A stretch of DNA of 64,000 nucleotides from Escherichia phage vB_EcoM_G2248. Below, one piece after another: positions 2,727-55,205 of this stretch. The stretch lies in the sequence record MK327932.1. One strand, 5' to 3'. A program made the translations under genes and the position numbers. A model generated the notes under the pieces. The model was not told the origin of the DNA, searched no databases, and saw only the letters and a list, made by a program, of their open reading frames with translations. Positions within the stretch are counted from its first letter, which is position 1, and each line of letters opens with the position of its first letter.

Positions 2727-4589
2727 TTACATGTGCTTAACGCGGTTTACCATCTCGGAGTGTTTCCCGTGGTTGAATGGACGCAGATCAACAGATCCAA
2801 GATATCCACTAACGCGACGGATAACATTCATCTTTTCCAGATTGTCATTGCCGCAATCAGGACAAACAAAACCAGACTCGGTCGCTCTCATTTCCTTAGT
2901 AGATCCGCATACATGACATACATCAGAAGGAGTATTAACACCGAAGTAGTGCAATTTATCCATTGCATAGTCTACTACAGTTTCAAGACCTTTCAGGTTG
3001 TTTTTCATGTCTGGGAACTCAACATAAGAGATCATGCCACCGGACGCCAGCCAGTGATAATCTTTCTCAAAGTCGATTTTCTCAAATGGAGTGACTTTCC
3101 GGTCTACGTCAAGGTGGAATGAGTTGGTGTACCAGTCTTTATCGGTAGCACCCTTAACAATACCAAATTGCTCTCGGTCCAGTCGATTAAATCGATAGCA
3201 AAGGCTCTCGGCTGGCGTACCGTAAAGACTAAACCCAAGTCCGGTTTCATCCTTCCATTTTTCAGTATAATGACGCAAGATCTTAAGAATATGTTTACCG
3301 TATCGCTGCGCATCTTCCGAATCAAACGGATGAACACCAAACAGGACGCTCAATACCTCATGTAAACCAATATATCCAAGAGAGATACTAGCGCGACCAT
3401 CTTTCAGAACTTCCAAAATTTCATCGTTTTGATGAATACGGAAAAATGCACCTTCTGTATACAGTACAGGAGCAACATTGGCTTTAGCCCCTTTTAAAGC
3501 GTCTACGCGACTCATGAGCGCATCAAAGCAAATAGGCATACGATTAGCTAGCTCTTGTTCGAATAGCTCAATTCTGCGCATTACAGACGCTTTACCAGCA
3601 CGACGCGCGGCAATAAGGGCAATACGCGGAAGATTTAGAGTCACAACACCTAAGTTATTACGTCCGTCTAATACTTCTTCGCCTTTCTCATTATGCCACA
3701 CACCCAGGAAGCTACGACAACCCATCGGGCTAACCGGAACACTAGATCCAGTGATACTACGGTTATTCTTCGCAGAGATATAATCAGGGTAAAGACGCTT
3801 ACTAGAACATTCCAATGCAAGTTGCTTAATGTCGTAGTTCGGATCTTCCGGTTTAAGGTTTAATCCTTCTTCTAAGAACATCACCAGCTTAGGAAACACC
3901 GGAGTTATACCGTCTTTACCTAAACCTTTAGTTCGAACTTTCAGGATCGCTTTCTGAATCAGTTTTTCTTCCCAGCTAGTACCCATACCAAAGGTTAAAG
4001 TCACAAAAGGCGTTTGACCGTTGGTGGAGAACAAAGTGTTGATTTCATATTCCAACGCTTGATACCCGTCTAGCGTTTCTTTTTCTGTCTTCTCTTGTGC
4101 ATAGAGAGTATCAGCTTTGATTCCGTAGGTTTCGGCATCAGCAAGGTGTTTATGATATGTTTTCTCAACGTATGGCGCTAAAACCTGATCGATGTTTGCA
4201 ATTGTGGTCCCGCCATATTGATGACTTGCCACCTGTGCGATAATTTGAGCGGTTACAGCACAAGCAACGCCGATCGATTTCGGACTTTCGATTTGTGCGC
4301 TACCCAATTTAAAACCATTCTCTAACATGTCTTTGAGATTAACAAGACAGCAGTTAGTAAACGGCATAGCGGGTGCATAATCCATATCATGATAATGAAT
4401 ATCACCATCTACATGCGCTTTATAGATGTGCTCAGGTAACACGGTTTTAGCAATCTGTTTAGACACAGCACCAGCAATCAGATCTCGACGTGTCGGGAAT
4501 GTTCGCGCGTCTTTGTTCGCGTTCTCTTTGCTTACTTCGTTTTCTTTACCCGTTGCGATCTCTGTAATGTCTTTGATTAGTTTTTCCAT
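2727..4589 (-). CDS. nrdD: anaerobic ribonucleoside-triphosphate reductase (glycyl radical enzyme)
   Basis: 620 aa; C-terminal zinc site CPDCG and glycyl radical motif RVSGYLG; single uninterrupted ORF. Confidence 0.9.
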   Translation of the reverse strand: MEKLIKDITEIATGKENEVSKENANKDARTFPTRRDLIAGAVSKQIAKTVLPEHIYKAHVDGDIHYHDMDYAPAMPFTNCCLVNLKDMLENGFKLGSAQIESPKSIGVACAVTAQIIAQVASHQYGGTTIANIDQVLAPYVEKTYHKHLADAETYGIKADTLYAQEKTEKETLDGYQALEYEINTLFSTNGQTPFVTLTFGMGTSWEEKLIQKAILKVRTKGLGKDGITPVFPKLVMFLEEGLNLKPEDPNYDIKQLALECSSKRLYPDYISAKNNRSITGSSVPVSPMGCRSFLGVWHNEKGEEVLDGRNNLGVVTLNLPRIALIAARRAGKASVMRRIELFEQELANRMPICFDALMSRVDALKGAKANVAPVLYTEGAFFRIHQNDEILEVLKDGRASISLGYIGLHEVLSVLFGVHPFDSEDAQRYGKHILKILRHYTEKWKDETGLGFSLYGTPAESLCYRFNRLDREQFGIVKGATDKDWYTNSFHLDVDRKVTPFEKIDFEKDYHWLASGGMISYVEFPDMKNNLKGLETVVDYAMDKLHYFGVNTPSDVCHVCGSTKEMRATESGFVCPDCGNDNLEKMNVIRRVSGYLGSVDLRPFNHGKHSEMVNRVKHM

Positions 4590-14892: not shown

Positions 14893-17037
14893 TTATTCAC
14901 GTCCATTTGTATAGTAGTGTTTGAATCGACCGTAACCAGTTTCAATGGTCATTGTTCTTTGGTGAACAATAGCCCAATAACCGTTACAGGAATCTTGCAG
15001 ATACAAATCTTTACCTTTCATAAACTCATTAAAGATTGTTTTCTGCCAGTCATAATAGACAGAATCTTCAATCTTATCCATCCAACCGTGTGGGTCTTCA
15101 AGCAGTTCAACAAGTTCATCGATAACCCAATACGGACACGGACTAAATCGACCTTTACTAAATTCGTTGAACACAGTAACGGTTTTAGCTTCCGGTCTAG
15201 GTTCATCAGGTTCTTCCGGTCGACGATTAACCACAACCTGAACATATTTTGTATAACCGATAATTTCCCCAGAGTCCAACTCATCGTTATTGTTCTGGTC
15301 AGCAAAAGCAACGAATCTATAGACTCCAGAGTCACCTATAGTAGCATTAACTTTTGTGTATATCGGTGTTTTGGGATCGATAATCGGCAACCGAACACCA
15401 TTTTTACTAAACTCATACGTTGGAACGTATGTAGAAGGAGGATTTAATGTCGTTGCTTCTAATGTCAAAGTATCCCCTTCCATAATCTGTACAGGATGAG
15501 GTCCGTCAAATTCCATATTAGGAACAACTTCAACATTATAGGTTGCACGCCCTGCAATATCATAATCATGATGCGCACTATATGGGTCTACACTAGGACT
15601 ATCTCTATATTCATGCGCCCAAATGCCATTATGTTCACGATCCGCAGAGTCAGTAATTTTATACTCTTTAGCCTCAATTGGTAGTTCGGTCACAAAAACA
15701 TCATTTTTTGTTATAACCAAAGAACGAGTTTGAGTAAAATCGCTACTTGCGGGTGGCTCTGGATCGACGATCTTAATAACAATAGGTTCACCAACCTCAA
15801 TATTTCGATAATCGTATTCTTTGTCATAAATGTCAAGCATACGACGGTCGTAAAATAATGGCCTTCCTTTATTGAGGTCATATGCACCATCTTGATTAGA
15901 AGGGGCAACTAGTAATTGTAAAGCAACGCTATTATCATACTGCAAGTCCGATAAAGTAATTCGGTCATAACCTTCATCGCCATATTTTTTGCTTTGTAGA
16001 GTTTTACCACCCAACATCCACGTAAAATAAACATTATTATTAATCAAACTATAATGTCGATTCCACGTATTATCGGATGTTACTAATGGCATATCTAGAT
16101 TGACGGTGGACCCAGAAGGATAACGAAATTCAACGGAATTAAAATCACGATCAAAAAATTCATTGTCTTTGATTGTTACCGTGAATCTATGACGATCACC
16201 ATCAATATATGCTGTCCCTTCTCTGGTTTCACTTGCGGCCTTATATGCACGAACCAAAGCAACATAAACACCCGCATCGGTTTCTTGAGCATGTTTCGTT
16301 ACAAACAGAGTCCTGTCTGTAGATTCATAAATTAAGCTACCATCTTCTCTTTCCAGACGATAACGGACAACGGTATATTCATCATTGGCGGGAGAATCGT
16401 CTGTCACCGTAAAATAGACAGGAGCATATTTCTGTGCGTTAAAAATTTCCGCGCTTTCCTGAATGGTGGCCTCAAACGGATAAACAAATTTCACGTCACC
16501 CGCTTCATCGCTAAGTTCCATTCTATATGTGCCAGAAAATTCAGGCCATGCAAATTTTGCAATTTTAAATTCACGATGGTCTAAACCAAGATCCCCGTCA
16601 ATAGTATCAACAAGACCGTCATTATAATAAAGGTCGATAGAAATGTTTTCTGGGATATGAATACGAAAAACAATTTTAGCCTTTATTTCGTCACCAACCA
16701 CAAAGGAAGTTGGAGGATATACATATTCAACATACTGATTATCAAATAATTCAAATGTGAAATTTTCCGTGCCGATATCAACGGATTCACCAGCAAAATC
16801 ATTATCATCTTGGGCATAGCCACGAACATTAACAGACCATCCTGTTTTATCGCTTTCTTTCACAGATTTTAATTCAAAAGACGGTGTATCGGTTGTAGCA
16901 ACAACCACCCCACCTTTTTTCCAAACATAACCTTTTTTCGGTTTAGTTGGATCATCTGATTCGGCAGCAATTGAGCACGCGAACGTATGAGGAAGCCAAA
17001 TGGTTGTGTTAATGCTAGTATCTTTTACTTCTGGCAT
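14893..17037 (-). CDS. large hypothetical protein (714 aa)
   Basis: Long ORF, ATG 17037 with RBS AGGGGGA; no counterpart recognised among T4 genes. Confidence 0.6.
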   Translation of the reverse strand: MPEVKDTSINTTIWLPHTFACSIAAESDDPTKPKKGYVWKKGGVVVATTDTPSFELKSVKESDKTGWSVNVRGYAQDDNDFAGESVDIGTENFTFELFDNQYVEYVYPPTSFVVGDEIKAKIVFRIHIPENISIDLYYNDGLVDTIDGDLGLDHREFKIAKFAWPEFSGTYRMELSDEAGDVKFVYPFEATIQESAEIFNAQKYAPVYFTVTDDSPANDEYTVVRYRLEREDGSLIYESTDRTLFVTKHAQETDAGVYVALVRAYKAASETREGTAYIDGDRHRFTVTIKDNEFFDRDFNSVEFRYPSGSTVNLDMPLVTSDNTWNRHYSLINNNVYFTWMLGGKTLQSKKYGDEGYDRITLSDLQYDNSVALQLLVAPSNQDGAYDLNKGRPLFYDRRMLDIYDKEYDYRNIEVGEPIVIKIVDPEPPASSDFTQTRSLVITKNDVFVTELPIEAKEYKITDSADREHNGIWAHEYRDSPSVDPYSAHHDYDIAGRATYNVEVVPNMEFDGPHPVQIMEGDTLTLEATTLNPPSTYVPTYEFSKNGVRLPIIDPKTPIYTKVNATIGDSGVYRFVAFADQNNNDELDSGEIIGYTKYVQVVVNRRPEEPDEPRPEAKTVTVFNEFSKGRFSPCPYWVIDELVELLEDPHGWMDKIEDSVYYDWQKTIFNEFMKGKDLYLQDSCNGYWAIVHQRTMTIETGYGRFKHYYTNGRE

Positions 17038-17059: not shown

Positions 17060-17458
17060 TTAAGCCAGTCGAGTGAGTTTATAAATGGTTTTAAAGCATA
17101 GAGCTTTGATATCGTCTAAAACGCTCTGTAACGAGCTATCAACATCATTATAAATCTCACTAGCCATTTGCGTTAACTCTTGCAAATAGGCAATTTCGCT
17201 AATCTCCTTGCGGACGACCAACGTTGGTTGATAACGACCAGTGATCCCAATATTGGTTTCAGTGAAATTATCAACCAATTCTTGCATTTCAAGATAGAAC
17301 TCTTCTAGCGCCTTATGTTTTGCATAAGAACCAGGACCAGTCACCCCAAAATGCGCAGAATGCATATAAGTAACACTCATCAGACATTCACCGATAAAGC
17401 GGTCAACTTTATTAGCTTTCCCGTCTTCGGACGTCTTTCGAAAATCACTGAATTTCAT
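17060..17458 (-). CDS. hypothetical protein
   Basis: Start placed at ATG 17458 behind RBS GGAGAATC. Confidence 0.45.
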   Translation of the reverse strand: MKFSDFRKTSEDGKANKVDRFIGECLMSVTYMHSAHFGVTGPGSYAKHKALEEFYLEMQELVDNFTETNIGITGRYQPTLVVRKEISEIAYLQELTQMASEIYNDVDSSLQSVLDDIKALCFKTIYKLTRLA

Positions 17459-17747
17459 GTTCTCGATTCTCCATATTATGCAACATAACAAATTGGTTTG
17501 CGGCATATTCCCCCATAATAAAACACTGCTTAGAGTCCATACATTTACTACGAGCGTACATCTTCATAATGTGGGCATGAAATTTCTGGCTGGTTTCAAT
17601 GGAAGGAGATATTTTGTTTACATATACTATCATCGCACCGTCGAAATAATCAGTAAAGTCACCAGTTAGATCATATTGATCAGCACTGACACTTCCGACC
17701 GCTGTCAAGCATATTGCCGTTGTTAGAGTTTTACGAATAAATGACAT
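17445..17747 (-). CDS. rI-like lysis-inhibition regulator candidate (signal-anchor plus periplasmic domain)
   Basis: N-terminal hydrophobic segment; Y-x3-C-x5-C-x3-G-x2-A-x-Q pattern resembles T4 RI (from memory); lies just downstream of tk. Confidence 0.4.
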   Translation of the reverse strand: MSFIRKTLTTAICLTAVGSVSADQYDLTGDFTDYFDGAMIVYVNKISPSIETSQKFHAHIMKMYARSKCMDSKQCFIMGEYAANQFVMLHNMENREHEIQ

Positions 17748-19934: not shown

Positions 19935-20525
19935 TCAATAGCGTTTAGTCTTAAGAATGCCTTTACTCTTTAGATGGTTGGCCTTTTTTAGTACGTCATC
20001 AGCATAACCTAATCCGGCTTTATAGTTCCATCCAGCATTGTAAGAAGCTAGCGCGAGTCGGATATTACCGTTTCGAACATCCAGCCAGTATGCTAACTCA
20101 TCCATCGCGTAGAATGCAGAAACCTCGCGATTCATGATAAAGTTGATAGTCTGGCGATCACTCATTTTAACACCGCGCTTTGCATTTTTCGCTTTCACCG
20201 TTTTAAGGTAATTTTGAAATAATCCATAAGCATGATGATTTTTCTTTGGTGCTAAGTTTGCACCCGCGCTTGATTCTTGCCATGCGATACCCGCCAGGAT
20301 GTGGCCTAAACCCTTTCCGTCATAGCGAATATTCGGATGGTCATTTTTCAACTTACCGCTTTTCTCGAATTGTTCGCCATATTGATAGGCGAAATGTAAA
20401 TTATCTAGTTGGTGTGCTGTAAAGTTGTCTATCGGCGCTTTTTTGATCGGTGCGCTAGTCGATGCGTGTGTAGCACCAACGGCTAGTGACAGACTCAATA
20501 CTATCGCTTTTAGAACTTTTAACAT
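19935..20525 (-). CDS. secreted lytic transglycosylase (SLT domain)
   Basis: Signal peptide; SLT motifs GIAWQESS and AYGLFQ. Confidence 0.65.
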   Translation of the reverse strand: MLKVLKAIVLSLSLAVGATHASTSAPIKKAPIDNFTAHQLDNLHFAYQYGEQFEKSGKLKNDHPNIRYDGKGLGHILAGIAWQESSAGANLAPKKNHHAYGLFQNYLKTVKAKNAKRGVKMSDRQTINFIMNREVSAFYAMDELAYWLDVRNGNIRLALASYNAGWNYKAGLGYADDVLKKANHLKSKGILKTKRY

Positions 20526-22589: not shown

Positions 22590-22632
22590 AATTAAACCCT
22601 CAGTTGATTAAGAGATTGCATCATATCATCAT

Positions 22633-23780: not shown

Positions 23781-24356
23781 TTATTTTGGATCTGGGAAAT
23801 TCAATAGAGCATATTCTCCATAAAATTTCCTAGCTGCATTATCATAAGCGATTGCAGCTTCGATTTCTGTGTCATATTGTCCAAGAACATGTCTTTGTAG
23901 GTTGACCATTATACTAGCTCTCCATTTCTTACGCAAATCCTTCCTGTTACACTTACTAACACCCTTATACACACTAGAAAACTTTTTAGACTTCTTCTTT
24001 CTATTATGTTGATTTTGCGCGTCGGTTGCCTCCCTAAGATTTGGAGGATTGTTATTAGCAGGATTACCGTCAATATGATCAATTAATCTAACTTGCGTCC
24101 CATGTTCTAGAAACCAAACAACCCTATGCACGAATAGATGAACTCTAGGAAGACCGTCATCTCTACTATGCCAAAATCTAAGATGACCATCTTTATTTGT
24201 TCTGACTTTAACTAAATCGCCGTGTTTATATCTACTCCCTAATGGTCGTCCTTTGATAGCTTTACTATCGACTCTATAATATAAGATACCCTCTATATGA
24301 GCATATCTAAGTTTTATCTCGTTTTGTAGGGATTCATCCCAATATTTAAAAGCCAT
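23781..24356 (-). CDS. HNH homing endonuclease with C-terminal AP2 DNA-binding domain
   Basis: HNH motif LIDHIDGNPANNNPPNLREATDAQNQHN; AP2-like SSVYKGVS...WRASI...YDTEIEAAIAYDNAARKFYG. Confidence 0.75.
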   Translation of the reverse strand: MAFKYWDESLQNEIKLRYAHIEGILYYRVDSKAIKGRPLGSRYKHGDLVKVRTNKDGHLRFWHSRDDGLPRVHLFVHRVVWFLEHGTQVRLIDHIDGNPANNNPPNLREATDAQNQHNRKKKSKKFSSVYKGVSKCNRKDLRKKWRASIMVNLQRHVLGQYDTEIEAAIAYDNAARKFYGEYALLNFPDPK

Positions 24357-24401
24357 TTTATAATCCTCACAAAGCCAGCGATTAAGCTGGCTTGATTTTA
24401 G

Positions 24402-24791
24402 TTATACCGGGTCTGGATATACCTTTTTATCGAGTTCCATATGCGGTCCGTCTTTAAAAGTAACCCAATCAACACCGCAGATAACAGGAACACCCAATTC
24501 TCGACCAGCTTGTTTAAATGCATCCGCGATCATGCGGTAGTATTTCATGTTCCATGTATCCTTATCTTTCGGATACGCTACAACGTCAACCGCGAAACCG
24601 TGAAGATGACGAGATTTCATAGTCTTAGATTTACCTTCCGCAACATATTTCTTTTGCGTTTCTAGACTACGTACACCTTCCGTAATACCAAAATCGACCG
24701 GAGTCAGTTCTAACGCACGATGAACGACTTTTACCAGGTCAGGATGCACACCAACAAGCCGATCTTTGCTTCTTTGAGATAATTTAAACAT
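24402..24791 (-). CDS. peptidase M15 family peptidoglycan endopeptidase (candidate endolysin)
   Basis: Zn-binding motifs SRHLHGFAVDV and DGPHMELD typical of L-alanyl-D-glutamate peptidases; no signal peptide. Confidence 0.65.
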   Translation of the reverse strand: MFKLSQRSKDRLVGVHPDLVKVVHRALELTPVDFGITEGVRSLETQKKYVAEGKSKTMKSRHLHGFAVDVVAYPKDKDTWNMKYYRMIADAFKQAGRELGVPVICGVDWVTFKDGPHMELDKKVYPDPV

Positions 24792-24819
24792 TATTCACCC
24801 CCTTTGTGAGTGATAATAT

Positions 24820-25011
24820 TTAGATTCCGGCGATCCTGCATAGAGTTCTTGTATTAGCACCAATCAGGATCGCATTAACGACAACCATTCCCCAATCAAC
24901 CCACTGATTATTATAAATGCTAAACCCGTTTGCAAGACCAAATACAAGCATTCCGGTACACATACTCAGAGCAATAATCAACATCACGGTAAAACCAAAT
25001 GCAAATTTCAT
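24820..25011 (-). CDS. small membrane protein
   Basis: 63 aa, hydrophobic, ATG start. Confidence 0.4.
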   Translation of the reverse strand: MKFAFGFTVMLIIALSMCTGMLVFGLANGFSIYNNQWVDWGMVVVNAILIGANTRTLCRIAGI

Positions 25012-25012
25012 A

Positions 25013-25228
25013 TTATTTTCCTTTTCTCTGTTTACGTTTATAAAAGTAATACATTACCTCATCACGTCCGGTGATCCAACATGCTAGGGCGGTAAACAGG
25101 TTTACAATTCCCAACACACCTACTGACGCGGCGCTGTCAACAGACATAGGAACAGTAAAGGCCATAGCTAACATAGCAACGCCACAAATGACATTAAGCA
25201 CCATTATAATAAGACCGAAGAAAACCAT
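25013..25228 (-). CDS. small membrane protein
   Basis: Start placed at ATG 25228 with RBS GGAGGA; two hydrophobic helices. Confidence 0.4.
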   Translation of the reverse strand: MVFFGLIIMVLNVICGVAMLAMAFTVPMSVDSAASVGVLGIVNLFTALACWITGRDEVMYYFYKRKQRKGK

Positions 25229-25230
25229 TG

Positions 25231-25422
25231 TCAATCCTCCGACACAAGAAAACCAACAATCACGCCAGTGATAAGACATGATGCGCCGCTAATCAGACAA
25301 CCCGCACCAAGTGATTCCCACCAGATCAGAGAAGCGACAATAACACAGAATCCCCATACTACCGCAATCACAACATAGGCAAGGGTCGCCCAAAACATAT
25401 ATTTGTTCATAATAAATCCCAT
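25231..25422 (-). CDS. small membrane protein
   Basis: Hydrophobic 63-aa ORF. Confidence 0.4.
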   Translation of the reverse strand: MGFIMNKYMFWATLAYVVIAVVWGFCVIVASLIWWESLGAGCLISGASCLITGVIVGFLVSED

Positions 25423-25595
25423 TCACCAAACAAATAAGAAAAAAGCCATATCAACAGAAACGAGGCAATTGATCCGGCAAGCAAAATGATATTAGAGAAT
25501 CCGCCGTCTATCCAGGCGACAAAACAGAATACGCCAGTATAGAAGCATAAACCCATTACAAAGCATACTATAAGCAACCATAGACAAAACGCCAT
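25407..25595 (-). CDS. small membrane protein
   Basis: RBS GGAGGG before ATG 25595; hydrophobic. Confidence 0.45.
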   Translation of the reverse strand: MAFCLWLLIVCFVMGLCFYTGVFCFVAWIDGGFSNIILLAGSIASFLLIWLFSYLFGEWDLL

Positions 25596-25656
25596 AGAAA
25601 GCCCTCCATCGAGATAAATTAGTGCGGGTAGGGGACTGCACTACCCGCTTTGTTAA

Positions 25657-25815
25657 TCATCGCAGAGCGTGTTCTAGAACGATTCCACACCAACCGCTAA
25701 CCACACCAAAACACACAGCAACAAGCAGATTCATTCGGTCTTTTGGAATCATCGCAAACAGAACAACACCCACACAGAAAGCCATCACCATTGAAGTTAA
25801 CATTTGTTCAACCAT
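25657..25815 (-). CDS. small membrane protein (52 aa, below track cutoff)
   Basis: Own translation MVEQMLTSMVMAFCVGVVLF...; RBS AGGTG before ATG 25815. Confidence 0.35.
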   Translation of the reverse strand: MVEQMLTSMVMAFCVGVVLFAMIPKDRMNLLVAVCFGVVSGWCGIVLEHALR

Positions 25816-26430: not shown

Positions 26431-26628
26431 CTAAAATTTGTTAACGACGAATTGCATAATTAGACTAATCACAAACATTGCAAACCAAGTATAAATGCAA
26501 CAGATAAAAGCTACATACAATTCAATCTGGTCAGAGAATACACCGGGTAAAAGCATTAGCAAAATAACAACAGTAAAAACGCTAGCGATACCCGCAACAA
26601 AACCAATATCATTTTTACTAATCGTCAT
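26431..26628 (-). CDS. small membrane protein
   Basis: Hydrophobic; ATG 26628 overlaps the upstream stop. Confidence 0.4.
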   Translation of the reverse strand: MTISKNDIGFVAGIASVFTVVILLMLLPGVFSDQIELYVAFICCIYTWFAMFVISLIMQFVVNKF

Positions 26629-26825
26629 CAAGTCACCGTTTTGTAAAGAAACACAATAAAATCCCAGACAAAAAAGACAGTGAAAATAATCATCGTCAAG
26701 ACAATAAACACTGTCAGATTTTCATCGTTAGTTAATTCATGACCGTCCATCCATATAATCACCAGATAAAACATCGAAATCAAGGAGGCGAATACCAAAT
26801 TATAAAACTCTTCCTTTAATGACAT
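26628..26825 (-). CDS. small membrane protein
   Basis: Hydrophobic 65-aa ORF. Confidence 0.4.
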   Translation of the reverse strand: MSLKEEFYNLVFASLISMFYLVIIWMDGHELTNDENLTVFIVLTMIIFTVFFVWDFIVFLYKTVT

Positions 26826-26826
26826 A

Positions 26827-27009
26827 CTACACCTCGTCGCGGCTTAAGTCAACAGCAATTGCATACAGCATAATGAATATGCTAGCCGATCCGAGAATCA
26901 ATACACCCTCACATTTTGAAACTCGCTCATCAAAATGTAACATTATCCATCCGAGGATGTTAAAGGCGCAGACCGCGCCTATGTTCGCTAACCAATTAAT
27001 CTTTTTCAT
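26827..27009 (-). CDS. small membrane protein
   Basis: Hydrophobic 60-aa ORF. Confidence 0.4.
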   Translation of the reverse strand: MKKINWLANIGAVCAFNILGWIMLHFDERVSKCEGVLILGSASIFIMLYAIAVDLSRDEV

Positions 27010-28588: not shown

Positions 28589-28807
28589 TTATTTATATCG
28601 CTTTCTCTCGCGACGTTTTTGATCTTCTTCCTTGATAGAGTTAAATGCATCAAAAAGACACATGACACTAATAATAAACATAACCGTATTTTCTACGGTA
28701 TCCCACGGCTTCGCATCAGTACAGATCCCCCAAACGGTAAGAAATGCAAATAAGGCAGAAGAGATCACAAGAATGATACTTGCTAAAATATAAAAAGTCA
28801 TTTTCAT
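28589..28807 (-). CDS. small membrane protein
   Basis: Hydrophobic 72-aa ORF. Confidence 0.4.
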   Translation of the reverse strand: MKMTFYILASIILVISSALFAFLTVWGICTDAKPWDTVENTVMFIISVMCLFDAFNSIKEEDQKRRERKRYK

Positions 28808-32886: not shown

Positions 32887-32919
32887 TAAAAAAGCCCGTC
32901 AATGACGGGCTTAATTTTT
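32886..32919. terminator. bidirectional rho-independent terminator
   Basis: Hairpin GCCCGTCAATGACGGGC flanked by an A-run and a T-run. Confidence 0.65.
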
Positions 32920-33946
32920 AATATGTATCAGCTAATTTAATTATGTTATCAAGTTCCGTTATTGGTAAAGTTTCTGTGTATCCATCTTTCAACATAGATT
33001 TATCAACAACGCCACATTGATAAGTTCTCTTTATTTCCTTTTCAAGTTCCCACGGAATCCAGCCATCAACACTTTGTTTGACGTAAACAAGTTTATGAAC
33101 AAACTTAGATTTCTGCATATGTTGTTTCATTCTGGTTTCCGGTAATTCATTGGTTACACCAAACTTTATAAATTTATCATCTAACGTCTGGATATAAAAA
33201 TATCCTATCTCAGATGGACGATAGCCAGAAGAACTACATTTCGGACACCCTTTAGCATTTCTGCTGAACGTACAATATCTTACGGAAAATTCGGCGTCAT
33301 GTTTTGTACATTTAAGTTTTATCCATGAATTTGCAGTACCTATCCATTCACCATCGACACCTATATATTCATACCCTAACTTTTTACATTTATCTTCTAT
33401 TCTAGATAGTGCATCTTCTACGGGAACGACATATTCCGTCTTAAATTGTTCAGCCGCACATTTCTTACAACCACATGTACCATGATTTTTAAAATCAAAG
33501 AACTTTGTATTCTTCCAAATATGGTCATGTTTCTTGCATCTAAGAATAATCTTAGTAATTTGTGATTTCCAGCCACCAACAAATCCCAAAAATTCATAAT
33601 CAAGATCTTTACATTTTTCTTCAATGAATTTGGTTGCTTCCTCTTCTGTCATAACTCCCCTACATTGAGGACAACCAACAATAACCTTTTTAGCATAGAA
33701 ACTATTACTGGAAACATCATAGACAGATCCATGCTTATTGCATTGGATAACAGATCTAGTCAATTTTCCTTTCCATTCTCCAGAAAATCCTAAGAATGTA
33801 TGGTCGACAAGTTTACACCTTTCAATAACTTTATCCGCAAATTCTCTAGGAGATTTTGTTACTTTGTTTACTCTGTATTCTATTTCTTCCGGTTGACGAA
33901 GATAATAAACGTGGGGATTGCTCCCCACGGAATTAATATTAAGCAT
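32918..33946 (-). CDS. putative GIY-YIG-like nuclease with three N-terminal zinc-ribbon repeats (candidate homing endonuclease)
   Basis: Three ~45-aa repeats each ending in a CxxC-type motif (CPQCRG, CGCKKC, CPKCSS); C-terminal GYFYIQTL...FIKFGVT...R...H; ATG 33946 with RBS AAGGAAGG. Confidence 0.4.
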   Translation of the reverse strand: MLNINSVGSNPHVYYLRQPEEIEYRVNKVTKSPREFADKVIERCKLVDHTFLGFSGEWKGKLTRSVIQCNKHGSVYDVSSNSFYAKKVIVGCPQCRGVMTEEEATKFIEEKCKDLDYEFLGFVGGWKSQITKIILRCKKHDHIWKNTKFFDFKNHGTCGCKKCAAEQFKTEYVVPVEDALSRIEDKCKKLGYEYIGVDGEWIGTANSWIKLKCTKHDAEFSVRYCTFSRNAKGCPKCSSSGYRPSEIGYFYIQTLDDKFIKFGVTNELPETRMKQHMQKSKFVHKLVYVKQSVDGWIPWELEKEIKRTYQCGVVDKSMLKDGYTETLPITELDNIIKLADTY

Positions 33947-34760
33947 CCTTCCACACCTTCCTTGCATCATAGTTTTTACCTTTAGAAACAAATTTATATG
34001 TGTTAAGGTAGATAATATTGCTCCAGTCTTTCGGGCTAATCTCAACAAGTTTTGTTTTAATGTGTCCCGGTAGATATGCTTTGATCATGTGATCACTTCC
34101 ACGCATACCTTTTACATCGCTCCATTTGATTTTTAAGCGTGTTTTATTGCTCAAGGTAGGAGTAGATGCATATTGCTTTAAAAGTGCCTCTAAAAACTGC
34201 TGACGGGCTTTAGGAGTTACATAGTGTAAGTTAAGACCCAGCATCACAGTATTACCCGCCTTTGTCTTAGAATCACCCAGACAAATGATCAGCGGGAAAA
34301 CATCCCAATATGGCAAAGTGTCTTTATACTTAGCATCATACATAAAGGTATAGATTCGCCCTACTTGCGGTTTTACAATCTGGTGTCCCTTTATTCCAGC
34401 TTTTATTGTTTTAGTAAACCACTCCTGTGATTTTTCTTTAGGACGACTCTTTGATACAGCACGCATAGACGCACGAAAATCATTAATCATCATCATTGCG
34501 CGTTGCTGCTTATTGAGACCCTTTGCGCCTTTCCCTTTTAGTTTTTCAACTTCTATTGCTGTTTTAATTTCGCTGGCATAACGAGACATACTTTTAGTGA
34601 AAGTCGCATAGGCTATTCCCTTAGAATCTGCAAATGCTTTAGCTGTCATGCCTTTGGCTTTTGCTTTCGCAAATTCTACACCCAATTCGACCCACTGTTT
34701 AGACTTTCTTTTTTGGGGAGACGGCTTTTCGTCTTCTGTGATTATTTCAAATACGCTCAT
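33939..34760 (-). CDS. 2: DNA end protector protein gp2
   Basis: 273-aa basic protein at the T4 gene 2 position upstream of gene 4. Confidence 0.65.
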   Translation of the reverse strand: MSVFEIITEDEKPSPQKRKSKQWVELGVEFAKAKAKGMTAKAFADSKGIAYATFTKSMSRYASEIKTAIEVEKLKGKGAKGLNKQQRAMMMINDFRASMRAVSKSRPKEKSQEWFTKTIKAGIKGHQIVKPQVGRIYTFMYDAKYKDTLPYWDVFPLIICLGDSKTKAGNTVMLGLNLHYVTPKARQQFLEALLKQYASTPTLSNKTRLKIKWSDVKGMRGSDHMIKAYLPGHIKTKLVEISPKDWSNIIYLNTYKFVSKGKNYDARKVWKDA

Positions 34761-35866: not shown

Positions 35867-37666
35867 ATGCTAATGTTTAATAACTCCGTTAAATGGTTTA
35901 CCGGAATTGTAGAAAACAGGGAAGACCCATTAATGCTGGGGCGTGTTCAGGTTAGGATTCATGGTATACATCCCTCGCTATCCGCGCACGGTGACATTCA
36001 AGGTCTTCCAACCGAAGATCTATTATGGATTACGCCAGTACAAGATATTACAAGCGCGGCGATCTCCGGTATAGGTCAAAGCCCTACTGGTATTGTTGAA
36101 GGTTCAATGGTATTTGGTTTGGCTTTAGATGAACGTTATTTAAACTGCGTTATTCTGGGTACTATTGCCGGACAATATACAGAGAAACCACTCACTACAG
36201 AAGGTTTTTGCGACCCTTCTGGTGCATATCCTCGTTATATTGGTAATGATGTTAATATTCTTGCTCGTGGCGGTATTAACCCAGAAACCGGACAAACAAC
36301 AAAACCTGATAGTGTCTATATTCGAGATGAAAACACTGGAGTTGCAGTAAATCCAGACGACGAGCCATTAGACCAAATTCCGGTTGATGATAATCCTGAT
36401 TTTACAATAGAAAAAATGCTGCGGGGCGATGAGGGGTATCGCGAGAAATGGTATCTTGATTCAGAAGGATATCCGACAATAGGCATCGGGCATTTGATCA
36501 TTTATAAGAAAACCAGTGATCTTGGTATTATCAATAATGAACTTTCTAAGCTGGTAGGGCGTGAAGTTACAAACGGAAGACTTACCGCCGAAGAAGTTAG
36601 TAAAGTATTTGCTGACGATATAGAAAAGACTCGTCGTGATATGCGCAAACATCCACGAATTGCACCTGTCTATAATAAATGTAATGCCTCACGTCGTATG
36701 GCATTAGAAAATATGGCGTTTCAAATGGGTGTTGGTGGATTGGGTAAATTTAAGAATAGTCTTGCTGCGATGTTAGCGGAAGAATGGAAACAAGCCTATG
36801 ATGGATTACGTCAATCGGTATGGGCTAACCAAACTCCAGGACGCTCCAGCCGTGTTTCTAAAATTATTTTAACTGGTAACTTAGAATCATATGGCGTAAT
36901 TGCTCCAAAGAAAGAGGAATCAATTTCTGATGATCCGCGAGCACGTTTGAGAAATGCCCGTATTGCTGCCTATAAGACGCAGAGAGCAGAAGAAGACCCA
37001 GAAGCACCGTTTACCCCACAAGACACACGAATCATGTTTAAAGAGCCTAAGAGTTCGTATTCTGCTAGGTATCCTTATAACCATGTGTACGAGTCAGAGA
37101 GCGGTCATATTATCGAGATTGATGATACTCCTTCTCATGAGCGATATCATCGTAAACATCCTTCGGGTACATTTGAAGAAACCAGACCGGACGGAACGAG
37201 GGTAGAAAAGATTGAAGGCGATGATTATCTGATCGTTAAACAAGGCCGGAAAGTAAACGTTAAGGGTAATTTGCAAGTTGTTGTTGAAGGTGACGCGCAA
37301 GTTTATTATATGGGTAATGTGATGCAAACCGTTGATGGCAACGTCACTGAATTTATTCGTGGCAATGTTAATCAGACCGTTGAAGGTACTGCTAACATGC
37401 ATGTTGTTGGTGATGTTATCGCACAGCTTGACGCTAATTTGACGGCTAACGTCAAGGGTAATGCTGAATTAATGATCGAGGGTAACACTACCGAAACAAT
37501 TAAAGGTAACTATGATTTAACCGTTGAGGGTAATTTTAATATGACCGTCAATGGCACTAAATCAGATCAGGTTAATGGTGACTGGTCCCGTAATTGTGGT
37601 GCAAGCGTTAAAGATATTGCATCTGGTACAGTTCAAATTGATGGTAGCCGTATTGATTTTGGGTGA
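35867..37666 (+). CDS. 5: baseplate hub and tail lysozyme gp5
   Basis: T4-lysozyme-like domain (LRGDEGYREKWYLDSEGYPTIGIGHLI) and C-terminal repeats of the type VxGNxxxxVxG. Confidence 0.9.
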   Translation: MLMFNNSVKWFTGIVENREDPLMLGRVQVRIHGIHPSLSAHGDIQGLPTEDLLWITPVQDITSAAISGIGQSPTGIVEGSMVFGLALDERYLNCVILGTIAGQYTEKPLTTEGFCDPSGAYPRYIGNDVNILARGGINPETGQTTKPDSVYIRDENTGVAVNPDDEPLDQIPVDDNPDFTIEKMLRGDEGYREKWYLDSEGYPTIGIGHLIIYKKTSDLGIINNELSKLVGREVTNGRLTAEEVSKVFADDIEKTRRDMRKHPRIAPVYNKCNASRRMALENMAFQMGVGGLGKFKNSLAAMLAEEWKQAYDGLRQSVWANQTPGRSSRVSKIILTGNLESYGVIAPKKEESISDDPRARLRNARIAAYKTQRAEEDPEAPFTPQDTRIMFKEPKSSYSARYPYNHVYESESGHIIEIDDTPSHERYHRKHPSGTFEETRPDGTRVEKIEGDDYLIVKQGRKVNVKGNLQVVVEGDAQVYYMGNVMQTVDGNVTEFIRGNVNQTVEGTANMHVVGDVIAQLDANLTANVKGNAELMIEGNTTETIKGNYDLTVEGNFNMTVNGTKSDQVNGDWSRNCGASVKDIASGTVQIDGSRIDFG

Positions 37667-54345: not shown

Positions 54346-54371
54346 TAAATACTCATAAACAAGGGGGTCAA

Positions 54372-55205
54372 ATGTTCGGTTGGCACTATAATTCGTCAAT
54401 TAGACGGTATATTGTATTGCTGGGTAATTTATTCTCCGGCGTACAAATTAAAAGGGTGCGTAGTGACGGTGAGCGGTTTATTAAAGTTCCTATCACCTAC
54501 GCAAAGAAAGAAAAATTCATGATGACTCTGGACAAATATAACAATATCTCAAGTGAGGAAGACGTAGCAAAGGTAGAAACTATTTTACCGCGCATGTGTC
54601 TTTCTTTGATTGATATGACATACGCCCAGAACTTTAAAACCAATATTGCAAATAAGACAGTACCAAAATATACAGCGGATGGAATCAGGAGCGTAACACA
54701 ATATAATCCTGTACCATATAAGTTTACTTTCGAGTTAGGGATTTATACGCGTAACGAAGATGATATGTTTCAGATAATTGAACAGATTCTTCCTTACTTC
54801 CAGCCTCATTTTAACTGTAAGATTAAAGAACTACACGGTAATGATGTATGGATTGATCGAGATATTCAGGTCACAATTAGTTCTATTACTCCAGATGAAC
54901 AGGTAGGCGAAGATAAGTTTTCTCGTCGTCGTCTTGAGTGGACCATTATGTTTGAGTTCATCGGGTTTATCTATCCTCCAGCTACTGACGTTAAGGGGGA
55001 AATCAGAACGATTTATCTTGATTTTCATGCTAATTCTCGTGAATTAAATCCTAGCGGTAATTTTGAATCTGTGGATCACGAGGTCGTTAAACGTGATGTT
55101 GAGCAAGAAGAATGGGATGGAACAATCAAAGAATCATATTCTAGTGATATTCCAATACCAGTTGCACCGACTCCACCGGGTCCACGTATTGTAAGAGAAT
55201 TTTAA
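54372..55205 (+). CDS. 15: tail sheath stabilizer / tail completion protein gp15
   Basis: Start placed at ATG 54372 behind RBS AGGGGGT (track ORF starts with TTG at 54342). Confidence 0.8.
   Translation: MFGWHYNSSIRRYIVLLGNLFSGVQIKRVRSDGERFIKVPITYAKKEKFMMTLDKYNNISSEEDVAKVETILPRMCLSLIDMTYAQNFKTNIANKTVPKYTADGIRSVTQYNPVPYKFTFELGIYTRNEDDMFQIIEQILPYFQPHFNCKIKELHGNDVWIDRDIQVTISSITPDEQVGEDKFSRRRLEWTIMFEFIGFIYPPATDVKGEIRTIYLDFHANSRELNPSGNFESVDHEVVKRDVEQEEWDGTIKESYSSDIPIPVAPTPPGPRIVREF

Follow-up and report, generated by a model that had tools for sequence, protein, structure and literature searches.

The window, by which we mean the whole 64,000-nucleotide stretch of Escherichia phage vB_EcoM_G2248 that was analysed (MK327932.1), is a segment of a Krischvirus (RB49/JSE-like, Straboviridae) genome. 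The 5.5-kb stretch around the endolysin ORF matched 63 phage records, with 95–99% identity in 52 of them, and all 63 are RB49/JSE-like coliphages assigned to that genus. The region of phage JSE from 33.2 to 98 kb is colinear with the window, with 91–99% nucleotide identity over the aligned blocks. The features discussed here are as follows.

24402–24791, minus strand: endolysin gene, encoding a 129-aa single-domain M15C zinc peptidase (ATG-initiated ORF, PF13539, PHROG 465)
24582–24614, minus strand: motif SRHLHGFAVDV, residues 60–70, with zinc ligands H62 and D69 (alignment, PMC10487532)
24429–24452, minus strand: motif DGPHMELD, residues 114–121, with catalytic D114 and zinc ligand H117 (alignment, PMC10487532)
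24402–24482, minus strand: substitute endolysin 3' end (B-type tail), codons 104–129 plus stop (alignment with RB49)
24357–24401, minus strand: 45-nt spacer with a terminator-like hairpin and the Shine-Dalgarno sequence of the HNH gene (terminator scan, G5211 annotation)
23781–24356, minus strand: free-standing HNH (plus AP2-like) homing endonuclease gene, 191 aa (PF13392, PHROG 99)
24785–24822, minus strand: predicted RNA hairpin over the endolysin Shine-Dalgarno sequence and AUG (centroid −12.3 kcal/mol)
24820–25815, minus strand: five small ORFs (63, 71, 59, 62 and 52 aa), each with two TM-like segments (hydropathy)
17448–17747, minus strand: rI antiholin homologue (tblastn, 92% identity to JSE RI)
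36407–36892, plus strand: lysozyme domain of the gp5 baseplate hub, within the gene at 35867–37663 (tblastn with T4 e)

The ORF at 24402–24791 matched Pfam PF13539 (Peptidase_M15_4) at 33.9 bits (cutoff 25; E = 4.8e-8) and PHROG 465, annotated as 'endolysin', at 5.5e-63. The Pfam scan gave no match to PF00959, and NCBIfam returned nothing more than a MepK match below threshold. Among solved structures, the ORF matched 23ri_A (2.3e-77), described as 'l-alanoyl-d-glutamate peptidase bacteriophage RB49 complex with Zn2+', and 8q2g_A (2.9e-74), with weaker matches to Serratia ChiX, EndoT5, LysB4, and Ply500. The proteins of JSE and G5211, annotated as endolysin or peptidase, are 100% identical to the window endolysin, while those of RB49 and GEC-3S are 91% identical to it overall. 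The RB49 protein, EndoRB49 (NP_891673.1, PDB 23ri), has the same residues 1–103 as the window endolysin and is a published L-alanoyl-D-glutamate peptidase (PMC8140593). The digestion assay proposed in the initial annotation is thus already in the literature for the RB49 enzyme. From these matches, the window endolysin is the JSE-type allele of EndoRB49, with the same peptidase activity predicted.

In EndoRB49, H62, D69, and H117 bind zinc, D114 is catalytic, and full activity requires W109, the mutation of which leaves 5% activity (PMC10487532). All five residues are present in the window endolysin, which also has the zinc pattern of the family, H-x6-D followed by a further His with an Asp three residues ahead of it. 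In a conservation alignment of 46 homologues (54–94% identity), S60, R61, H62, G65, A67, and D69 were invariant in 46/46, D114 and H117 were likewise invariant, and W109 was at least 90% conserved. One family feature is missing, namely the near-invariant W-G-G before W109, which reads C105-G106-V107 in the window allele; W-G-G is a conserved, non-catalytic feature. The endolysin is assigned to MEROPS M15 subfamily C, EndoT5/EndoRB49 type, on its profile match, zinc ligands, catalytic Asp, W109, and modelled fold.

An AF2 model of the endolysin, built on the 46-homologue alignment, reached a pLDDT of 94.1 and a pTM of 0.89. It superposed on 8q2g with a TM score of 0.87 and on ChiX with one of 0.92, and also superposed on 23ri and EndoT5. 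Foldseek matches of the model were 23ri, 8q2g, 5opz, 2mxz, and 2vo9, and more distantly VanY/VanXY/LdcB. The fold of the model is of the Hedgehog/DD-peptidase type, as in solved family members. By hydropathy, the protein has no TM-like, signal-like, or SAR segment.

We examined whether the phage also carries a T4-type lysozyme. In the window, tblastn with T4 e found the gp5 lysozyme domain only (43% identity over 162 aa, 1.3e-37), and there is no e gene in the window because this sole T4-e-like sequence sits inside gp5. The initial annotation had proposed that the rest of the genome be searched for homologues of e and of the t-type holin, and we ran these searches on the complete genome of the close relative JSE. 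T4 e again matched gp5 only (69569–70054, 43% identity, about 1e-37), and the JSE gp5 protein has PF00959 plus Gp5 domains; beyond gp5, both the window and the complete JSE genome yielded only noise (E above 2). The JSE annotation contains no e gene and no other candidate endolysin.

Gene order places the peptidase where T4 has its lysozyme. The T4 order is vs.6, vs.7, vs.8, denV, ipII, ipIII, e, nudE ... tRNAs ... ipI, 57B, 57A, 1, 3, and that of JSE and the window is vs.6, vs.8, (HNH), M15 endolysin, small ORFs ... dmd ... 57B, 57A, 1, 3. The peptidase thus lies in the vs.8-to-57B interval that holds e in T4, which indicates non-orthologous displacement in place. The initial annotation had seen no T4 e-type lysozyme at the expected place, had read this ORF as a 129-aa M15-family peptidase with the motifs SRHLHGFAVDV and DGPHMELD, and had suggested that the lysis module would differ from T4 in enzymatic class. 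Each of these observations is borne out by the exact minus-strand ORF and its family matches, by the two motifs at residues 60–70 and 114–121, and by a zinc peptidase in the map interval of an e gene that is absent in JSE.

The other components of a T4-like lysis system could be traced in JSE and, in part, in the window itself. JSE encodes a T-type holin of 218 aa (PF11031, 1.6e-60), located after the distal tail-fibre genes, so that the proposed search for a t-type holin was successful in a close relative; it also encodes an RI antiholin (PF24205 Antiholin, 9.1e-23), the homologue of which lies within the window. The JSE annotation lists the spanins pseT.2/pseT.3, for which our Pfam scan returned sub-threshold noise only, and a spanin survey puts RB49, Phi1, and JSE in T4 spanin groups (PMC6139136). 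The t and spanin genes lie outside the window and would therefore be expected in this genome on the strength of relatives with 91–99% nucleotide identity.

We conclude with high confidence that the ORF at 24402–24791 is the phage endolysin, that it depends on a holin, and that the T4 lysis partners are kept while e is displaced by a peptidase. The bond specificity and in vivo role of the window allele would be those of the 91%-identical EndoRB49, by analogy. Since the endolysin has no signal peptide and no SAR or TM segment, it should build up in the cytoplasm. It would reach the wall only once the inner membrane is opened by the T-type holin, whose gene lies elsewhere, behind the tail-fibre genes, and whose timing is set by the RI antiholin; T4-type spanins would then disrupt the outer membrane. 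Under this scheme, the phage would retain the holin, antiholin, and spanin set of T4, and a T5/ChiX-type peptidase would have displaced the glycosidase e without a change of map position.

A different role for the peptidase was also considered, in which it would be an accessory wall-remodelling enzyme serving secretion or entry, as ChiX does, with lysis carried out instead by vs.1 or gp5. Serratia ChiX is structurally close to the window endolysin (46% identity) and serves chitinase secretion, not phage lysis. Other wall-active domains are also at hand, as gp5 has its lysozyme domain and a vs.1 homologue at 19938–20525 (minus strand) has an SLT transglycosylase domain (PF01464, 26.1 bits against a cutoff of 21.3, from a scan of the 99%-identical JSE protein), making vs.1 a second putative wall hydrolase. 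The vs.1 gene is, however, present in T4 too, at the same map position, and T4, which carries both vs.1 and gp5, still depends on e for lysis. Moreover, the M15 gene occupies the position of e, the JSE annotation offers no other candidate endolysin, and lysis of Gram-negative cell walls has been published for both EndoRB49 and LysECD7. We regard an accessory role as extremely improbable and retain the endolysin assignment.

Directly upstream of the endolysin gene, the initial annotation had noticed a run of tiny membrane ORFs that could include a holin. The run itself was confirmed, as the five small ORFs at 24820–25815 on the same strand, but a holin among them was not. The five ORFs fall in PHROGs 15016, 15232, 16151, 19354, and 16035, all of 'unknown function', and three further small two-TM ORFs, likewise in PHROG families without an assigned function, lie at 26431–27009 (minus strand). 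Pfam (at E up to 10), NCBIfam, and PHROGs gave no significant holin-family match for the small ORFs, the best being Phage_holin_3_5 at E 0.18 and 12 bits against a cutoff of 27. With phmmer, no paralogy was detected among the eight small ORFs (52–71 aa).

The five ORFs nevertheless show some generic holin traits, being small, with two TM-like segments each, and adjoining the endolysin on the same strand, and one of them could be imagined as a second holin or pinholin, belonging to a local holin-endolysin cassette acquired with the M15 gene. The best candidate would be the 71-aa ORF (25013–25228), the only one of the five with a basic tail (KRKQRKGK). Size, TM segments, and a charged tail are, however, also common in small membrane proteins that are not holins. 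Homologues of the 71-aa ORF were found by tblastn in 58 Krischvirus records only, a confinement at odds with a holin travelling with M15 endolysins elsewhere. The relatives already own a T holin and an RI antiholin, the endolysin has no SAR segment to suit a pinholin, and similar membrane ORFs go on upstream at 26431–27009, where there is no lysis context. Together with the missing family match, these points make a second holin very unlikely, and we continue to place the holin function with T.

Signals for expression of the endolysin gene were also examined. The T4 late promoter sequence (TATAAATA) does not occur immediately 5' of the gene; its closest minus-strand copy is at 28590–28597, and the window holds 7 occurrences of this sequence against 6.25 expected by chance. 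The predicted hairpin over the ribosome binding site is reminiscent of the translational block on early transcripts of T4 gene e, and its sequence is invariant among relatives. The folding z-score of the 76-nt stretch that contains it was −1.64, which is not statistically distinguishable from shuffles.

Downstream of the endolysin gene, we found a homing endonuclease gene that interrupts the original endolysin 3' end, together with a substitute endolysin tail. The HNH ORF matched PF13392 (HNH_3) at 40.2 bits (cutoff 24.8) and PHROG 99 (HNH endonuclease) at 1.4e-43, and gave an AP2 match of 25.2 bits, below the cutoff of 33.3. The gene is absent at this site in RB49 and GEC-3S, where vs.8 directly follows the endolysin gene. 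The last 16 nt of the HNH ORF (23781–23796), CCCAGATCCAAAATAA, equal the original A-type (RB49-type) endolysin 3' end, and the flank beyond the end of the ORF is also RB49-type. Between the two genes, the terminator-like hairpin of the spacer spans 24372–24393, the place at which G5211 annotates a terminator; the 45-nt spacer arrived with the insert and is absent from genomes that lack the homing endonuclease gene (HEG).

The altered endolysin end, or B-type tail, reads ICGVDWVTFKDGPHMELDKKVYPDPV. Over codons 1–103, 7 of 309 nt (2.3%) are changed relative to RB49, all synonymously, whereas over codons 104–129 plus the stop 31 of 81 nt (38%) are changed, and the breakpoint between RB49-type and variant sequence is sharp at codon 104. 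As a result, the window allele departs from EndoRB49 at 12 of the last 26 residues. Since RB49-type sequence bounds both sides, the window can be described as an RB49-type backbone with a patch composed of the B-type tail and the HNH gene. Across the genus, the HNH gene was present in 13 of 63 Krischvirus records (12 phages, as JSE appears twice), and the variant tail plus spacer occurred in exactly the same 13. In the remaining Krischvirus records, the tail is the canonical one; by identity, 13 records stood at 99% or more and 42 at 90–95%.

The 12 amino-acid changes in the variant tail include W105C and G107V (codons 105–107, 24471–24479), at positions where W105 and G107 are at least 90% conserved in the 46 homologues; D114, H117, and W109 are kept. 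No characterised or solved enzyme of the family has this tail, the RB49 and ECD7 enzymes both having the canonical one. The loss of W105 and G107 raises the question of whether the HEG-linked allele is functionally impaired, the phage tolerating a weak endolysin, and the replacements do flank W109, at which mutation reduces activity to 5% (PMC10487532). On the other hand, 12 independently isolated, plaque-forming phages have exactly this allele, which argues that the variant tail works. The catalytic residues are intact, confidence of the AF2 model is high across the tail (pLDDT 88–95), and many HEG-less metagenomic contigs of Krischvirus-like type share a related CGV tail. Impairment is therefore unlikely in our view, and we treat the variant as a probably working endolysin allele.

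The mosaic pattern is that expected of intronless homing with co-conversion, from which we infer both cleavage and the polarity of the exchange. A diverged tail would plausibly give immunity to cleavage. We tentatively propose, as a reading with somewhat less than even support, that the HNH(-AP2) enzyme recognises the canonical endolysin 3' end and spreads by gene conversion together with a cleavage-immune tail. HNH-AP2 endonuclease genes in RB49, JSE, and RB43-type phages have been tabulated (PMC2993671). Our literature search found no description of an HNH insertion at the endolysin 3' end, and the HEG-linked endolysin tail variant may be a small, undescribed detail.

We also looked for a source of the variant tail. 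A blastn search of the phage collection with the variant tail plus spacer recovered only the 13 HEG-positive records. A large protein database contained a third endolysin allele, P0003, with the tail VCGVDWVTFKDGPHIELDKKVYPDPR, in metagenomic Krischvirus-like contigs, whose tails were the closest to the variant tail in that database; it is listed in 81 blocks of the collection and lies at 4001–4390 of contigs L009–L014, with no HNH gene downstream. A CGV-type tail thus exists independently of the endonuclease. Between the P0003 lineage and the window, divergence is 13% over codons 1–103, 13.6% in the tail, and about 13% in the flanks. As divergence in the tail matches that in codons 1–103, we rejected this lineage as the immediate donor, and which way the exchange ran is still something we infer.

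Elsewhere in the window, several further differences from JSE were observed. A homing endonuclease that splits JSE nrdD is absent from the window (~3710–3720), as are the JSE homing endonucleases between nrdC.11 and vs.6 (22602–22619) and between genes 14 and 15 (54353–54387). A 376-aa endonuclease ORF at 32918–34048 (minus strand), located between the gene 3 and gene 2 regions, contains CapR homology domains (PF21817; PHROG 681, 2.1e-79), and the stretch that holds it does not align with an endonuclease gene at the same place in JSE. One of the main ways in which these near-identical Krischvirus genomes differ is in the mobile endonucleases that they carry. The window also has a 714-aa ORF at 14893–17037 (minus strand) without a counterpart at that position in JSE, positions 14931–16918 having no JSE match; the C-terminal third of its product gave a weak Hoc-like head-decoration match (PHROG 1149, 4.3e-11) and no Pfam domain.

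Compared with characterised systems, the window endolysin is closest to EndoRB49 (RB49p102), with which it shares locus, genus, length, fold, zinc ligands, D114, and W109; apart from the tail, the two loci differ in that the RB49 gene has no homing endonuclease downstream. LysECD7, from the Krischvirus phage ECD7 (PDB 8q2g), is an orthologue with 88% identity over aligned residues, and its description is that of an endolysin that acts on Gram-negative bacteria; unlike the window allele, it has the canonical A-type tail (EWGGDWVSFKDGVHFQLPHSKYPDP). [quoted passage not shown] EndoT5 has a Ca2+-binding regulatory loop, which RB49-type enzymes do not have (PMC10487532). ChiX of Serratia marcescens (PDB 5opz), the best structural match, is an L-Ala-D-Glu endopeptidase that is single-domain like the window endolysin; it is a bacterial chromosomal enzyme for chitinase secretion, whereas the window endolysin is a phage lysis gene.

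T4 e, a GH24 muramidase, has the same lysis role and the same vs.8–57B interval as the window endolysin, and presumably shares T holin, RI antiholin, and spanin partners with endolysins of this type. The two enzymes have no sequence similarity and unrelated folds; e is a glycosidase that cuts the glycan strand, whereas the window endolysin is a zinc peptidase directed at the stem peptide. That an M15 endolysin replaces the T4 lysozyme in RB49-like phages is already known and is annotated in RB49, JSE, and many relatives. Lysis by M15 L-Ala-D-Glu peptidases in RB49-like phages has been established since about 2018 through biochemistry, NMR, X-ray structures, and genome annotation. The locus offers a clean textbook case in which a single lysis component has undergone non-orthologous displacement while the map position is conserved.

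As EndoRB49 and LysECD7 are under study as enzybiotics, the tail variant has a modest practical interest. If the homing scenario is true, homing would create the two endolysin alleles found among isolated Krischvirus phages, and would drag the active-site-proximal substitutions W105C and G107V into an enzyme under antibacterial development. The two alleles could then differ in activity, stability, or substrate range.
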